64,000 nucleotides of DNA. Source: Camelus ferus (lineage: Eukaryota). This document shows, piece by piece, positions 987 through 55,275 of this stretch. Made by a program: the position numbers and the translations under genes. Numbering within the stretch: the stretch's first letter is position 1; each line of letters opens with the position of its first letter. The notes below the pieces were generated by a model that made no database searches, had not been told where the DNA came from, and saw only the letters and a list, made by a program, of their open reading frames with translations. The DNA lies in the NCBI RefSeq assembly GCF_009834535.1, contig NC_045696.1, positions 53,880,001 through 53,944,000 on the forward strand, read 5' to 3'.

Positions 987-1666
987 TGGATTGGGTCTTT
1001 GAACCAACTGAGCCTGACCTGTCAGGAATTTCTTGGGTATACAACCCCCCAACCCCAGTATCCTCCATCTCTTGAAGCAAAAGGCTTTGCTTTAGTCCCA
1101 TAGGCCTCTCTTCAGGCTCAGAAAGGCTGGGTCAAGAGTTAATGACTGGAAGAATGTGAACATGTACTAACAAAGATTAACAGCTGGTCCAGAACTGGTA
1201 ACAATTCAAACAGTAAATCAACCATATAGCAGAGTCACAGAACCTTTAACTCTTACCTGAAGAATACATATAACAATGTCTGACACACATCCATAAGCTG
1301 TTTTCTAGAAACCAGACTCCCACCAGATGGAAACTGCTGATCACAAGCACATAGAGTCCAGATCCATTAGAACCAGAAAGATGATGATTGAGATTCCTGA
1401 AACATCACTCTATTACTTCACCAACAACCAATCAGAGAACTGTGCATGAGCTGATCACATACCCTAAGACACTCTCCCTCACCCTGTCTTTAAAAAACCC
1501 TCCCCTGAAAGCTATCAGGGAGTTTGGGTATTTTGACCATGAGCTGCCAGTTCTCCTTGCTTGGTGCCTTGCAATAAATGCTTTACTTTCCTTCATCACA
1601 ACCCGGGTACAATAGATTGGCTTTGCTGCACTTTTGGGGAGTAGAACCAAGTTCAGTTTGGTAACA
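987..1666 (+). mobile_element. Solo LTR, probably ERV1 class (about 680 bp)
   Basis: TG...CA termini (ends GTTTGGTAACA); near 4-bp TSD GGTA(983-986)/AGTA(1667-1670); CCAAT near 1429, TTTAAAA TATA-like near 1490, AATAAA 1573-1578 in U3-R-U5 order. Confidence 0.8.
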
Positions 1667-1682
1667 AGTATTTAGCAAATTA

Positions 1683-2012
1683 TAGTCAGCCCTCCATATC
1701 CATGGGTTTTGCACCTGCAGATTCAACCAATCATGGATCAACACTATTTTTAAAAACCCAGAAAGTTCCAAAAAGCAAAATTTGAATTTGCCACACACCA
1801 GCAACTATTTATATAGCATTTACATTGTATTAGGTAATATAAGCAATCTAAAGATGGTTTAATGTATAAAGAAGGATCTATCTAGGTTATATGCAAATAC
1901 TATGCCATTTTATATAAAGGACTTGAGTATCATCAGATTTTGGTATCTGCAGTGCGGCTGGGGAGAGGGGGTGTCTTGGAACCAAACATCCGTGAATACC
2001 AAGGGACAAATA
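1683..2012 (-). mobile_element. MER2/MER2B-like TcMar-Tigger MITE
   Basis: Degenerate TIRs (TAGTCAGCCCTCC...CCAAGGGACAAATA) flanked by TA; internal GAAAGTTCCAAAAAGCAAAA..TGAATTTGCC and TTATATGCAAATACTATGCCATTTTATATAA typical of the MER2 family. Confidence 0.85.
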
Positions 2013-2720
2013 TATGTTTCTAAAATCTGCTGTAATAATATAATCTTATAAACTTCTCTTTATATTTAGATGTTTCTGATTCCCTTGCTTCTCTCCTCAC
2101 ATGAAGTGTTTTCAGACCTCATACTACAAATTGGAGTTGTATATATGTTGAGGTTTTGTAAATTCAACTTTTTGTCAGTCACCAGTTCTCAAGGAGCTAG
2201 TTAGGTGACGAAGATTGTATCACCACTAAAAATCTGTAGTACATTTCAACTGTCTTATCAATTAGACTGGAAATCTCACAGACTATAAGCATGTTTTAAA
2301 CAGATAATGCTGCCATTAACATAAAAAAATAAGGCACTTCATAGTTAAGAGGAAGAGACAAGAAAACAGTTACAAATATACATATATATACACATACACA
2401 CATATGTAAGGTACATATTTCTTATACTATACTAAATTATATATGTCTGTTGTTGTCAGATCTATTTAGAATGACATTTCAATTTGAAGCAATTTATATA
2501 TAAGGAGATTTCTGTGGAGGATGGGCTGTAGAAGCTTTGGATTTGGCTCTGAGTGGCTCTCAAACACAGAGAGATAATTATGCTCAATCTGCACCGACCT
2601 TGAGGTTTAAGCCCTTTCAAGTTATAGTGAAACAAACAGGTGTAACCACACAAGAGAAAACAATAGCTTTGCTGGGCATGTGAGACCCTTCGTGTGTGTA
2701 CAGAACAGCTGAAATATTAC

Positions 2721-2840
2721 CATTTCAAGGATCCCTGCCTTCCTTTTTCTTCTAGGAAAACACTGCCACCTTCACAGTTTCTGCAGAACACTTCAGAAAA
2801 TATCTTTCACTTACCTAAAAGAAAGAACAACAAAAAAAGC
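2721..2840 (-). other. Candidate recursive splice site (3'ss abutting 5'ss) with putative 94-nt RS-exon
   Basis: Minus strand reads GCTTTTTTTGTTGTTCTTTCTTTTAG|GTAAGTG (junction 2815/2814); alternative donor ATG|GTAATA at 2721/2720. Confidence 0.55.
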
Positions 2841-3139
2841 ATTTAAACATCATTTCATGGTGAATTTGTTTTGCAATTTTAATTTAAAAATCCGTGCGTT
2901 CTTCAATAGACGTGTTTCTGAAACCCTGTCTATGCATTGAGGTTTGGTAAATTAAATCCTGATTTCCCCTTGTCCTGACATTCTAGCTTTAGAATATTTT
3001 TGAAAATTTGATAGTTTATTGGTCATCATTCCTGGTAAAATCATTTAAATATCTTGCATAGACCAGATTTTCTTGTACTTCTTGTACAAGAAAGCCATGT
3101 CTCAATCAAATGCAGAAGGTAGACATTGCCTGGTCTCTT

Positions 3140-3280
3140 CATTATTTAATCATTTGATCAGTCTTTCAGTCCTTCATTTATTTAACAAATATATATTGAC
3201 CTTATTGTATGCTGGCCACTTTGCCAGGCCTGGAGGTGACCAAAACACTCACCCTGACCTTAAATGTCCTACACTTCTTA
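3140..3280 (-). mobile_element. L2 3'-end fragment
   Basis: TTCATTTATTTAACAAATATATATTGACC...TGCCAGGC...CCCTGACCTT matches an antisense L2 tail. Confidence 0.65.
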
Positions 3281-4865
3281 CAGGTAAGCTGTACATCTGT
3301 TAAGAAGGACTAGACTCAGAAGCCCCCTTCCCCTTGACCCCTGGGGATACTCAAAAGTGTAACACAGAAAAGCTGTATCTTTCTTTGGTCCTCAGTTTTA
3401 TGCTCAGTTTGCAACATCATTGCAAAGACATGTTTTTTAGCCAGTCAAACATGGTCCATACGCAAGAGGAAAACTCAGGGACACGGTAGTAAACAGCATA
3501 TTAGCAGTCTGACAGATCATCAGGAGGGACTTTTGCTGTCTAGAAAATAGATGTCCATAGCCAGCTCCTACTAGCCCCCAGCAGCAGCACCACTGCAGAT
3601 GGCACTTCCCTCTGGCACATTTTATGATGTACTGAGACTGCTCAGAGGTCCTTGGCTTAACTGAACTCTGACTCCCGTTCCTCCACATGAGAACACCTTC
3701 AATTACCAGCCCCAGTTCTTATGTCTTTTATGCTACAAACCAGATGAGGCAAACCCAGTCCCTGGAGGAAAAAGAATCACTTTCTGCTTTAGATGAAAGC
3801 TGTGTTTGTCCTGTTGGGGATTTACACTCTGGAATTTCCTATCTGCCACTGGATGTTGCTGATTTATATTCTGTCTTAACATCCACAATGAGCACTGGAA
3901 GCTCTTGGCTTTCATCCCACCCAATCTGAAAACAAGGAATGAGTTCCCTTCAGTGGGCATGTGACAAATGAAGCTGTTATCAACATGCCATAGAAGCGAC
4001 TAGAGCTATCACGAGGGTTGTGAGCCACGCCCTGCACCACAGCTCCGGCGTGTAGCTGCAGTTTTGTCCCAGGCTGAGTCCGCCGCACTCTACTAAGTGG
4101 AAATGATTAGATGGAAACTGGTGAGCAAGGGAGCTGCTAGTGTGGCTGCATGTAGGAAGGCAGCTAGGACAGCAAGAACAACTTTCTGGATTCTTAGGGG
4201 CTACTTGACTTGAGTGGAAGACATCCGTCTTCTTCAATTAAGCATTTCAAGGTGTTTATCTGACTCATTTGATTTTGAAGTGAATACAGAGCTTTAAAAA
4301 TGCAGGTTCCTGAAAGGTATCAAACTGTAAGATTCTTTTATAACACCCCTAGTTATTAAATGCATATGAGTATATCTCCAGAAAGTTCTAAAGCACTGTG
4401 AAAATATAAAGTGCTTTCCCACACACTATTACACTTGTCCTCATGTTACCAAGAGTCGATGGATAAACTTCAACAAATCCCTATACAAAATAGGCATGCC
4501 TATCTAAACCTATGTACTAGCATTAAAACAGGATTACATTATATTATAAATTTCCACACTCAGACTTGTGAGGAAGAAAAATGAGGTGCTGAATGCTTAT
4601 GTTATGTGGCTGCTCCTGCCTTTGAATACTGATTTGTCTTAGTCAAAAATCTATAGATTAAGTAAAGCAATCAGACATACTCTATGATACCCAAGCCTAA
4701 TATACCATAATTGTATTTCTTGGCCGAAATATTGACCATGTGATGCATAGTGAACTCGAGGCTAGCGTATTCTTATTTAGTGTAAGGGACCATAACGAAG
4801 CTAGGAAAAAAATAATAGTGAAGCTCGATAACTACTTTCATGTTCACAAGGCCTTAAGTTCTTTT

Positions 4866-8634: not shown

Positions 8635-8870
8635 GGGTGGGGAGGGGTTGGGGATTAACAGACACACGTTACTATATATAAAGTAAACAACAAGGACCTC
8701 CTGTATAGAACAGGGAACTATATTCAATTTCTTGTAATAACAAATAATGGAAAAGAATCTGAAAAGAAAATATACATACATATGTATATGTATAACTGAA
8801 TCATTTTGCTGTACACCTGAAACTAATATTATAAATCAACTTCACTTCAATCAAAAATTTAAATAAATAA
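8635..8870 (+). mobile_element. L1 3' UTR end (artiodactyl type), directly abutting the SINE head
   Basis: CAACAAGGACCTCCTGTATAGAACAGGGAACTATATTCAA...GCTGTACACCTGAAACTAA...A-rich tail. Confidence 0.85.
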
Positions 8871-11299: not shown

Positions 11300-12020
11300 G
11301 GAGGACTCCCATTACCTTCTGGTTCCCAGCACCACTGCTCCACTTCAGACCCTCCTCCGTCCTTCTCAGGGACAGACTGCTGCATCACCCACCCTCCCCA
11401 AATGCATCCAGGGCACCTCTCTCTCACCCAGTTTCCAGAAGCTTCAGACTTCCCCCTACAACATTCATCTAATAACACCAGTTCAGTGAGAAACACTCGT
11501 ATGGAACCCAATACCTTCACAATAAATGGAAACTCCTTTGCATGCTGTTCAAGATCTTTCACAATCAAACCACACCCCTCCTGCTGGACTTCCTGGACAG
11601 CCTCATCTATGCAGTTCTCACTAGAGCCACAGAAGACCACTGCTAGGCTTCATCAACTTCCTCACATCCATGTCTCTCTTCCTGAAGTTCCTTCTTCACA
11701 TAATGTTGGGATCTCTTTGTAAGCCTGTCAAAATCCTGTCCATCCTGCCAGTTTCTGTCCAGATGTCCTAGGATGCTGTCTCTGATGCCTCTCTCCTGGC
11801 CTAATTTCCATCTCAGACGTTTGTTTCCCACCCAGTACACTCATAGCATCTGTGAGATTAACCACCATGTCCCACTCTGTCTTGCCACCCCTTTCTTCCT
11901 CCACTAGATGGCAAGGTCCTGAAGGGCAGAAAAGGTAACTAAATGATTCTGGATGTTCTGATTCCCAGAATAGTGCCTTGTACCTACCAAGTGCTGAATT
12001 AATATTTGCAGATTCAACTT
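11300..12020 (+). mobile_element. L2 LINE 3' portion
   Basis: Pyrimidine-rich L2 body ending CCACTAGATGGCAAGGTCCTGAAGGGCAG...TAGTGCCTTGTACC..AATATTTG. Confidence 0.7.
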
Positions 12021-20529: not shown

Positions 20530-21620
20530 AAGGCACCATGCCTCCGCCCCTCCCTTCTGCCCATCACCTCAACTGCTGTTGCTCAGCAGAACGTAGCCTG
20601 CCATCCTCCCTCTTTCCCTACAGCTGTAATGATTCCACCATAGGAAAGACATTCTCCTCCAAAGAGCTCCTGGTTTTGGGGGTGTCAGTGGGCTCAGCTG
20701 ACATAAACAGCTTTTAGGGCTCGCAGAAAGGGCAAGGTTTATTTCTTCATCTCTGATGGATATATAGATTTGATAATTTAAAAGACAGCTAAACTGCACT
20801 TCTTGTGGGCTTTTTACTTTTTTTTTTCTTTTCCGTTTTCTTCATCCCCTGGGAGCCTACTGAGCAGCTCTCTCCCCGCCTTATCTCACCGACTACAGTA
20901 ATGAGCTCCAGGGGGACCTCGAGACCGCCTTTGAAGTAACACGTTTCTCTGAATACACTTTGAAATGTCTCTCGTCCATTGTTTGTTTCTTGTTTGCTCT
21001 GACTGTTTCCTTGTAGGGGGGCCTGACAGCTGTTGGGGGGAGGGGCGGTCCAGTGTGACAGTTCTGCAGTGTGTAAACTGAACAACAGCAACAAAACTAC
21101 AAACAAAATAAGACAGAAAGAAAGAAGAAGAAGAAAACAAAGAACCAAAAAAACAAAACAGAACAAAACCCTTCCAACCACAGCCAGAGTGGGAACGTGG
21201 GAGCGTAAGCCCCTCGGCTGGAGTTGCTGCAGCATCCTGCTGGCAGCGGGCAGAGGAAGACCACCAGGATAGACACAGCTGGGAGGCCTGACAACTGTCA
21301 CAGAGGAGATGGTCTGCTGGAGACAGGTCCTCTGGCGAGAGCTCAGAGACAGCCCAGGGGAGGGGCAGACAGGCAGAGGAGCCCTCCCCTCCTTTCCTTG
21401 GGATGTAAGTGCACACAGATCCTGCATCTGAAATAGGTGAGGAGCCCGCACACCGAGCAGGAAGACACACAGCACATGCATTTTAACCTTTACACCTTCT
21501 TCACTGGAAAGACCTCAAACACATTTTGGAGATTCAGGGAATAAGATTCGATTTAGCATTTAGGAGGCAGGAAGGAAAAAGGATATAAAAGGTGAGGAGA
21601 AACCTAGCCTAGATGCTCCA
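20530..21620. promoter_or_regulatory. CpG-enriched, probably bidirectional promoter region
   Basis: Repeat-free; about 14 CpG in 20860-21460 versus a depleted background; GC boxes near 20542, 20874 and 21043; forkhead motifs (ATAAACA 20703, TGTTTGT 20980, TGTTTGC 20991); TATAAAAG at 21584-21591. Confidence 0.6.
20890..21060 (-). other. PDE4D: Candidate non-coding first exon (5' end uncertain), possibly PDE4D long-isoform (PDE4D7) exon 1
   Basis: Strong donor TCG|GTGAGA at 20890/20889 within the promoter-like block; gene identity is from recollection of the human PDE4D/PART1 arrangement and is not verified by alignment. Confidence 0.4.
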
Positions 21621-27729: not shown

Positions 27730-30280
27730 GTATGTCCAGACTGTTTGCTCTAAGTACCATTTATGTATTGACTAAAAACAAAACAAAATAATGACAAAAA
27801 AAAAATGGTCTTTTGAAAAATGGCTGATTCTACATCTGGAGCAGGGCACTTATGTCTTGCCACAACTGAAAGAAACAATAGGAAAGACTACAAGGGTCAT
27901 ATCAAAAGGACACAAATGCCAGCTTAAAGAGCTTCCACAGCCAAAACTGGGAACTTCTGAGCAACAAATAAATAAAATAATAATAATGACTGCAATAAAT
28001 TAAAAGATATATAAAGGAAAGGGGCTTTATTGGTAGGAATGTATACAATGATATATAAAAGTCCAGAAGTTCACAACGATTAAAAAAAATCCTCATTCCT
28101 AACTGTTAAAGGTTGCTAGGGCAATATCTCATTATTTTGAAAACTGATAAAGGGAAAAGATCAAGTGTTTGTCTTGTCTTTCCCACAGAAGCTATTTTTC
28201 AGAGTAACCAAATAGTTGATAAGGAAAATGTCCTCTTTGTAGGGAACCACAGATAATAAATACAGAAAGAATGATGGAATAACAAAGGCAGAATTTTGTA
28301 ACTTCAGTAAAATACTGGGTATAATGATCTCAGGCAGCTTCTAAAACTATCTGACTGGCTTACGATGAATTTTAAATGGATGGATCAGGCTGGCCACACT
28401 TGAGGCCACTGATGACTTTTAGCCTCACTAACAGTAGGACAACGTGCAATGATGTGCCTCCTGAAATTAACAATGCTTAATTTCATTCAACTGCTAGGTC
28501 CAACTTTCAGTTTCTAGGAGATGTGGAGGAAATGGCATATTTAAACAATACTATGAAGACGCAATTGTGAAGACACATTAATCATATCAAGAGTATGGAA
28601 CTTCTATAAGATCAAAAAAAATGCAGTTTCTTCAATAAATAAATGGCATGGAAACTTCTAAACATAAAATAAACAAATACAGAATAAATATGATTTTAAA
28701 AACATTTTTAACAGGAAATATATTTGGAAAGAGACTCAAAGGAAATATGTCAAAGGCATTGTGTGAACTGATTCAAATAAGCAGAACGAGTAATTTTTAA
28801 ACAAACAGGGAAAATTAAGCACATACTGAGTATTAGGCACTATTAAGAGATTATTGTAGACTTCTGAATGATGACCATTCTGACTAATGTCAGGTGATAC
28901 CTCACTGTAGTTTTGATTTGCATTTCTCTGATAATTACTGACACTGAGCATTTTTTCATGTGCCTATTGATCATTTGTATTTCTTCCTTGGAGAATTGCT
29001 TGTTTAAGTCTTCTGCCCATTTTTGGATTGGGTTATTTGTTTTTTTCTTATTAAGTCATATGAGCTGCTTAAATATTCTGGAGATCAAATCTTTGTTGGT
29101 TTCATCGTTTGCAAAAATTTTCTCCCATTCCACAGGTTGTCATTTTGTTTTACTTATGGTTTCCTTTGCTGTGCAGAAGCTTGTAAGTTTAATTAGGTCC
29201 CATTTGTTTATTCTTGCCTCTGTTTCTATTGCTTATGACAAATGCTGGAGAGGCTGCGGAGAAAAGGAACCCTCCTACACTGCTGGTGGGAATGTAGTTT
29301 GGTGCAGCCACTGTGGAAAACAGTATGGGGATTCCTCAAAAGACTAGGAATAGACTTGCCATATGACCCAGGAATCCCGCTCCTGGGCATATATCCAGAA
29401 GGAATCCTACTTCAAAAAGACACCTGCACCCCAATGCTCGCAGCAGCACTATTTACAATAGCCAACACATGGAAACAGCTTAAATGTCCATCAACAGATG
29501 ACTGGATAAAGAAGAGGTGGTATATTTATACAATGGAATACTATTCAGCCATAAAAAATGACAACATAATGCCATTAGCAGCAACATGGATGTCCCTGGA
29601 GAATGTCATTCTAAGTGAAGTAAGCCAGAAAGAAAGAAAAATACCATGTGAGATTGCTCATATGTGGAATCTTAAAAAAAAAAAAAAAAAAAGAACATAA
29701 ATACAAAACAGAAACAGACTCATAGACATAGAATACAAACTTGTGGTTGCCAAGGGGTGGGGGTAGGAAGGGACAGATTGGGTGTTCAAAATTTGTAGAT
29801 ACTGACAGGCATATGCAGAACAGATAAACAAGATTATACTGTATAGCACAGACAAATATACACAAGATCTTATGGCAGCTCACAATGAAAAAAATGTGAC
29901 AATGAATATATGTATGTTCACGTATAACTGAAAAATCATGCACTACACTGGAATTTGACTCAACATTGTAAAATGACTATAACGCAATAAAAAATGTAAA
30001 AAAAAGATTATTGTAAAGTGTGCTGGTTGGGGTATAAAGGTATTATGATTTTTGTGTGTCAGATATGCATTTTACAATATTTGTGAGTAAAATTATATGG
30101 TGTCTGTCATTTGCTTTGAAATACTCCAACAAACAGAAAAAAATATATTGGGAGGATATATAAGCAGCAGGAATGAAGAGATGTTCATTTTGTTGGAGTT
30201 AGGTGATAGGTACATAGAGGTTCATTGTACTTGTCTATTTTTTATGTTTTTAAATTACCATAATAAAGATTTTTTTAAAA
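27730..30280 (+). mobile_element. L1MC4/L1ME-type 3' UTR, split by a younger L1 at 28859-30001
   Basis: AAAATGGCTGATTC..GGAGCAGGG, TCAAAAGGACACA..GCCAGCTT; resumes after 30015 and ends GGTACATAGAGGTTCATTGTACT..CATAATAAAG. Confidence 0.75.
28859..30001 (+). mobile_element. Young L1 with 5' inversion (28859-29234 antisense; 29235-30001 sense)
   Basis: TSD AAGAGATTATTGTA (28845-28858) / AAAAGATTATTGTA (30002-30015); ORF 29242-29700 is the L1 ORF2 C-terminal Cys-rich region ([40 protein letters not shown]). Confidence 0.93.
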
Positions 30281-44270: not shown

Positions 44271-44725
44271 AAAAAGAAGGAAATAATGCCATTTGCAGTG
44301 ACATGGATAGACCTAAATAATCATCATAGTAAGTGAAGTAAGTCAGACAATGACAAATATTATATAATATCACTTATATGTGGAATCTTTTAAAAAATGA
44401 TACAAATGAGCTTATTTACAGAACAGAAACAGACTCACAGACATACAAAATAAACTTATGGTTACCAAAGGGGAAAGGGAGAGAGGGCAGTAATAAATTA
44501 GGGGTTGACAGATACACACTACAATATATAAAACAGATAAAGAAGAAGGACCTACTGTATAGCACAGAGAGCTTTATTCAGTATCTTGTAATAACCTATA
44601 ATGGACAAGAATCTGAAAAAGAATATATATACATATATATACACACATATCTATAACTGAATCACTTTACTGTACACCCGAAACTAACACATTATAAATC
44701 ACCTATACCTCAACAAAAAAAAATT
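44271..44725 (+). mobile_element. 5'-truncated L1 3' end with about 15-bp TSD
   Basis: TSD AAAGATATATTAATA (44256-44270) / AAAGATACATTCATA (44726-44740); GAAATAATGCCATTTGCAG, GGACCTACTGTATAGCACAG. Confidence 0.9.
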
Positions 44726-55014: not shown

Positions 55015-55190
55015 GTAGGTAGTACAGTGGAAAGAGTATCAATCTGTTTTGATCTGGAATCTGCCAAAGATAAGTGGTGCAACTTGGATAAGTTCCTCAA
55101 CCTTTGCGAACTCCAGCATCCCCACCCATAAAAAGAAATGGGATTTGAACAAGATAATTTCTATGACCTCTTAAATCCTAAAATTCTATG
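55015..55190 (+). mobile_element. MIR (MIR3-like tail)
   Basis: GTACAGTGGAAAGAG..CTTGGATAAGTT..AACCT..ATGGGATTTGAAC.AGAT..TCT..ATTCTATGA. Confidence 0.7.
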
Positions 55191-55275
55191 ACAATATCTT
55201 CCAAAATGGGATTTGAACAAGATAATTTCTATGACCTCTTAAATCCTAAAATTCTATGACAATATCTTCCAAAAT
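55136..55275. repeat. Perfect 68-bp tandem duplication with AAAT microhomology
   Basis: 55136-55203 is identical to 55204-55271; AAAT recurs at 55272-55275. Confidence 0.95.

Follow-up and report, generated by a model that had tools for sequence, protein, structure and literature searches.

A fused splice acceptor and donor on the minus strand of Camelus ferus contig NC_045696.1, at junction 2815/2814 of a 64,000-nt window (the whole stretch of DNA analysed here), is likely a recursive splice site of the very long first intron, between exons 1a and 1b, of the brain adhesion gene LSAMP, and likely the orthologue of the mouse recursive site Lsamp RS3. The preliminary description of this DNA had proposed that a very long intron on the minus strand contains a recursive splice site, a proposal that is supported by the anatomy of the motif, its position and a likely mouse orthologue that has itself been validated, with the intron assigned through synteny. 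The gene call is corrected, from PDE4D to LSAMP. A recursive site validated in mouse thereby likely has a counterpart in a distant mammal, and this fits a view of recursive sites as conserved stepping stones in the megabase introns of IgLON genes.

The motif itself is real and can be read directly from the DNA. As had been described, the minus strand carries an AG-free pyrimidine tract, then a TAG acceptor and then GTAAGT; at 2815/2814, the T-rich tract runs into TAG/GTAAGTGAAAG. Pyrimidines make up 18 of the 20 nt preceding the AG (16 of them T), the AG-free zone upstream of the acceptor is 84 nt long, and branch-point-like adenosines lie at -36 (2850) and -47 (2861) relative to the junction. 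By consensus counts, a strong 3' splice site directly abuts the intronic half of a consensus 5' splice site, donor strength being scored here as matches to the 9-nt consensus. The parts of the site are these:

Positions 2815 to 2900, minus strand: AG-free zone with branch-point-like adenosines (2850, 2861), polypyrimidine tract and TAG acceptor, from sequence inspection.
Positions 2809 to 2814, minus strand: GTAAGT, the intronic half of the 5' splice site predicted to be regenerated, from sequence inspection.
Positions 2721 to 2814, minus strand: putative cryptic RS-exon, which measures 94 nt if closed at a donor matching 6 of 9 consensus positions, with an uncertain 3' end, from the sequence and consensus counts.

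Such an arrangement is rare in this DNA. Over both strands (128 kb), YAG/GTRAG sites number 12, and the 2815/2814 site alone adds at least 17 pyrimidines and an AG-free zone of at least 30 nt; in local Markov models of two orders, each simulated 200 times, sites of this kind arose at rates of 0.02 and 0.015 per window, for thresholds that were chosen with the 2815/2814 site already in view. Approached from the acceptor side, the 4,088 YAG occurrences include 13 acceptors with at least 18 of 20 pyrimidines and an AG-free zone of at least 30 nt, and the one at 2815 is the only one followed by a donor hexamer. The preliminary description had called this sequence repeat-free; a BLAST search restricted to the window against itself returned one 21-nt low-complexity match. 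A weaker motif, CAG/GTAAGA, is present at 1256 on the minus strand, 1.56 kb downstream of the 2815 site, with 13 of 20 pyrimidines and an AG-free zone of 21 nt; its surroundings look by eye like an LTR-type repeat.

The downstream limit of the candidate RS-exon is less well defined. The preliminary description had closed the exon at an ATG/GTAATA donor (2721/2720), and the arithmetic behind its 94 nt is correct; that donor, which matches the consensus at 6 of 9 positions, does not rise above chance level as the exon end. A GTRA is expected by chance within nt 30-200 about 73% of the time, and possible weak exon ends after 2814 are found at 45, 76 (GC) and 94 nt, each matching 6 of 9 positions, and at 216 nt, matching 7 of 9, all likewise at chance level. 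Stops, said to occupy two of the three frames of the 94-nt exon, in fact occur in all three (nt 2, 6 and 61). Because the mouse RS3 exon measures 132 nt and the GT nearest to that length in the camel, at +128, has only 4 of 9 consensus matches, the 3' end of the RS-exon does not appear to be conserved.

The window contains no long coding frame naming a gene and no LSAMP coding exon. Its frames at 28898-29976 and 44354-44656 resemble LINE-1 3' ends, related copies of a 93-nt repeat lie at 8673 and 14970, and a perfect tandem duplication of 68 bp (2.1 copies, 100% match) occupies 55136-55275, its complete identity indicating a probably recent origin. We infer the host gene from synteny. Genes that we take to be DRD3, TMPRSS7 and PHLDB2 lie 2.42, 3.98 and 4.07 Mb before the window, what are presumably the CADM2 recursive sites lie 21.6 and 21.3 Mb before it, and a sequence that we assume to be exon 8b of GSK3B lies 2.21 Mb after it, all of these names being provisional. 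On human chromosome 3, CADM2, PHLDB2 and TMPRSS7 presumably precede DRD3, too. The order of the neighbours thus matches human chromosome 3, and since DRD3 and GSK3B bracket the window, it falls in the LSAMP interval. With hg19 anchors at 113.89 Mb (DRD3), 115.53-116.16 Mb (LSAMP) and 119.58 Mb (GSK3B), all on the minus strand, linear interpolation gives the 2815 site a position of hg19 116.81-116.83 Mb and a distance of 650-671 kb from the exon-1b donor of LSAMP, on its upstream side; this interpolation spans 5.7 Mb, has a precision of roughly +/-100 kb and depends on the unchecked neighbour names. By the same synteny, with the same dependence on names, the site shares its strand with LSAMP (minus, like DRD3 and GSK3B). 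Exon 1a of LSAMP is located 1.6 Mb upstream of exon 1b (PMC4409639), and rodents have in addition an exon 1a', whose human counterpart is dead (PMC4409639, PMC5288359). The 2815 site thus likely lies within the 1.6-Mb intron between exons 1a and 1b.

The same evidence bears on the original choice of PDE4D as host, under which the motif would belong to PDE4D and 18,075 nt, beginning where a first exon ends at 20890, would be spliced out in the first step. PDE4D does have recursive sites that share the motif class and have been validated. Its locus, however, is on human chromosome 5, whereas the provisionally named neighbours, DRD3 and GSK3B among them, are chromosome 3-type genes that mark the LSAMP interval. 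Moreover, the published distances from PDE4D sites to donors are 82-204 kb in human and 108-216 kb in mouse, against 18 kb here, and the PDE4D7 first intron, in 58 of the 113 PDE4D putative-site rows, has no strong site near 18 kb, the nearest being at 27.9 kb with a score of 6.8. Provided that the neighbour names hold, a PDE4D origin is contradicted by synteny, and it is extremely improbable overall.

Within LSAMP, the mouse provides a ready point of comparison. Mouse Lsamp has four recursive sites, three of which were validated by RT-PCR (Moon and Zhao 2022, PMC8797253). As given in the accessible parts of that study, RS3 is at mm10 chr16:40979498, its RS-exon of 132 nt spans 40979500-40979631, and it belongs to the AG/GTAAGT class and has both a saw-tooth profile and RT-PCR support. 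Upstream-junction reads number 112 and come from an exon ending at chr16:40786060, 193 kb upstream, and 3 downstream-junction reads lead to a weak donor with a MaxEnt score of 4.83 (PMC8797253). The exon ending at chr16:40786060 is taken to be the 60-bp alternative exon of Moon and Zhao, i.e., 1a'. Projection of the mouse sites was anchored by pairing mouse RS4 with the human site at hg38 116,801,301, the pairing itself being inferred, and it places RS4 356 kb, RS3 584-629 kb, RS2 908-1018 kb and RS1 1301-1490 kb upstream of exon 1b. Exon 1a projects at 1,579 kb, at a scale of 1.0, in agreement with the published 1.6 Mb. RS3 is the closest of the four projected sites to the camel site at 650-671 kb.

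Sequence comparison points the same way, to a modest degree. Seven RS-exon reverse primers from the mouse work (S5 figure, PMC8797253) were aligned to the first 135 nt past 2814, and the Lsamp RS3 primer gave the following match:

Positions 2752 to 2775, minus strand: match to the mouse Lsamp RS3 RS-exon primer (RS-exon nt 40-63), 16 identities over 22 nt, including an exact core of 8 nt, with one gap of 2 nt.

That score is reached by 34 of 2,840 window tiles, 2 of them at the site and 32 from 12 other loci, corresponding to a p-value of ~0.01, or 0.03-0.08 when 3-7 primers are allowed for. For each of the other six primers, 380-2,778 of the 2,840 tiles scored as well or better. The pyrimidine tract also resembles the RS3 row of the S3 figure (PMC8797253), by eye only and for tracts that are low in complexity. 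Pattern scans of metagenomes for the site produced 0 matches and 4 matches, the latter attributable to chance, with no homology outside the pattern, and open frames spanning the site, used as peptide queries, returned nothing at E<=1, so these searches yielded no orthologous DNA or peptide.

It is conceivable that the motif is a used recursive site of the 1a-1b intron other than RS3, either missed in mouse or lineage-specific. Such a site would account for the interpolated position, 20-90 kb beyond the projected RS3, and for an RS-exon 3' end unlike that of the mouse, and the primer match is modest enough to accommodate it. It would nonetheless call for two such strong sites within ~100 kb, and RS3 is both the nearest of the four mouse sites and the owner of the only primer among the seven to fit; a second, distinct site is accordingly quite improbable. 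We also give little credence to the idea that the motif arose by chance and goes unused, or that it marks a cryptic exon of rare inclusion. Very long introns do contain many unused AGGT sites whose acceptors are good, judging from the accessible putative-site rows of one study (PMC6110456), and true recursive sites amounted to 19 of 84 candidates having junction reads in the available portion of the mouse study (PMC8797253). Against this stand the null rate of 0.015-0.02 per window and the location: by synteny, the motif is in sense orientation in an intron for which four sites are documented, beside the expected place of RS3. An LSAMP recursive site orthologous to RS3 is the reading adopted in what follows.

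The preliminary description paired this site with an upstream donor at 20890, across a first segment of 18,075 nt. The sequence that ends there has properties of its own:

Positions 20890 to 21077, minus strand: conserved, mammal-like non-coding element ending in a TCG/GTGAGA donor-like site, a possible minor internal LSAMP first exon, from peptide homologues and interpolation.

The spacing stands, with 18,075 nt from 20889 to 2815; the splicing is unproven, the mouse RS3 junction arising from 193 kb upstream. The 20890 donor matches the consensus at 6 of 9 positions, and 21 donor-like 9-mers upstream of the 2815 site reach at least 8 of 9. A search with the 63-residue frame ending at this donor recovered, among 25 candidates, 15 unnamed proteins of 51-89% identity. 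These have the appearance of reading frames predicted from mammalian DNA, and their number overstates that of independent species, several being near-identical. Because these homologues keep just the last 25-30 codons in frame, the element is best regarded as conserved non-coding DNA. We also considered whether the 241-codon frame at 20789-21514 codes for protein and rejected this, the homologues being in frame over those last codons only. Judged from residues, a kept GT at the donor codon is compatible with 14 of the 15 homologues and incompatible with one (P0015). A peptide ending just after the donor codon, as in a spliced 20890-to-2814 form, was seen in 0 of the 15; all read through or stop like genomic DNA and are likely DNA contigs, which makes this a weak negative. 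The CpG observed/expected ratio of the element is 0.45, versus 0.19 for the window. An AACAATG word within 20890-21100 (minus strand), presumably a SOX-type site, is apparently kept in most of the homologous peptides, and acceptor-like sites lie at 21096 and 21077 on the same strand.

Interpolation places the element at hg38 chr3:117.117-117.138 Mb, and a human LSAMP model starts at 117,139,389 in the accessible part of a published table (PMC8115686), a closeness finer than the precision of the method. The element may be that annotated minor LSAMP first exon, and, if so, part of the 20890-2814 pairing would be rescued. It is a further and rather unlikely step that it acts as an internal LSAMP first exon splicing to RS3 after 18 kb, with RS3 then serving both the distant 1a promoter and a nearby internal one. 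If true, this would offer a test case for how an upstream exon determines whether the RS-exon is removed recursively or included as a poison exon, and the human catalogues lack the site concerned.

How the camel site would work is suggested by the mouse data and by the general vertebrate model, in which an RS-exon is first defined and then spliced to the exon upstream, after which the 5' splice site rebuilt at the junction competes with the donor of the RS-exon itself (PMC6224609, PMC8797253). The camel site would split the intron of the 1a transcript, a cryptic RS-exon being defined during transcription through the site by the strong acceptor together with a weak donor further downstream. The upstream exon, some 200-300 kb away and beyond the window, would then be joined to the GT at 2814; this exon could be 1a', if kept in camel, or else 1a, by way of a donor regenerated at RS2. 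The junction would rebuild a strong 5' splice site that is predicted to beat the weak RS-exon donors (45, 76, 94 or 216 nt), and the rebuilt donor would remove the next segment, to RS4 and then exon 1b''. The RS-exon would be absent from the final mRNA, with rare inclusion adding a premature stop. According to a run index, 14 RNA or possibly-RNA runs contain 0.12-0.44 of the words found in 1500-4500, with 0.44 and 0.43 in the top two. The share of 1500-4500 downstream of the site is 0.438, equal to these top two, as a saw-tooth would give; the other 12 runs are lower, and the coincidence is given no evidential weight.

In the accessible portion of a 900-sample human brain study, which covers annotated introns only, seven rows belong to LSAMP and none is near 117.1 Mb or the projected place, so the comparison with published human lists suggested at the outset yielded no match there (PMC13622621). 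Nor does that portion of the catalogue hold any chromosome 3 site with an hg38 prefix of 11700-11711 (PMC13622621), and the catalogue speaks against an abundant 20890-2814 junction. As far as the accessible parts of both sources go, the mouse Lsamp 1a-1b intron has four sites and a human counterpart seems to be listed for just one, at hg38 116,801,301 (PMC13622621 versus PMC8797253). This suggests that annotation-based human catalogues miss the LSAMP 1a-1b intron, and the lack of a matching site in the human lists consulted probably reflects poor coverage of this intron in the annotations on which they rely. Among the matches listed from literature outside subscription journals, no camelid or human report of Lsamp RS3 was found, and the mouse paper (PMC8797253) was the only relevant one on recursive splicing or saw-tooth patterns in LSAMP. 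A chicken oocyte preprint describes a coverage gradient in an LSAMP intron, with no mention of recursive splicing in its accessible part (10.1101/2024.02.05.577752).

The camel site finds its place among several known systems. Available portions of the literature describe cryptic RS-exons in the long neural genes CADM1, CADM2, ANK3, OPCML, NTM, ROBO2, HS6ST3, NCAM1 and PDE4D (PMC6224609, PMC6110456, PMC8797253). These exons share a fused acceptor and donor, exon definition, competition between the regenerated and downstream donors, and stops upon inclusion, and the camel site shares the fused acceptor and donor by its sequence and is predicted to be alike in the other respects, with no categorical difference. 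Vertebrate cryptic RS-exons in long neural genes were reportedly already described by Sibley in 2015. The human PDE4D sites RS1-3 (hg19 chr5:58981769, 58764261 and 58678237, in the accessible part of PMC6110456) have the motif class and a long minus-strand intron in common with the camel site but differ in lying, by synteny, on another chromosome and 82-204 kb from annotated donors. Much closer is mouse Lsamp RS3, which shares with the camel site the motif class, a pyrimidine-rich acceptor and a candidate weak downstream donor, as well as the predicted host gene, the strand and a similar location within the 1a-1b intron. The two differ in that the mouse exon has its donor at 132 nt, whereas the camel site, known from its sequence alone, has no notable GT donor at +132. 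Taken together, the camel site is likely a well-formed recursive site of an ordinary kind, and likely a copy of the one already known in mouse.
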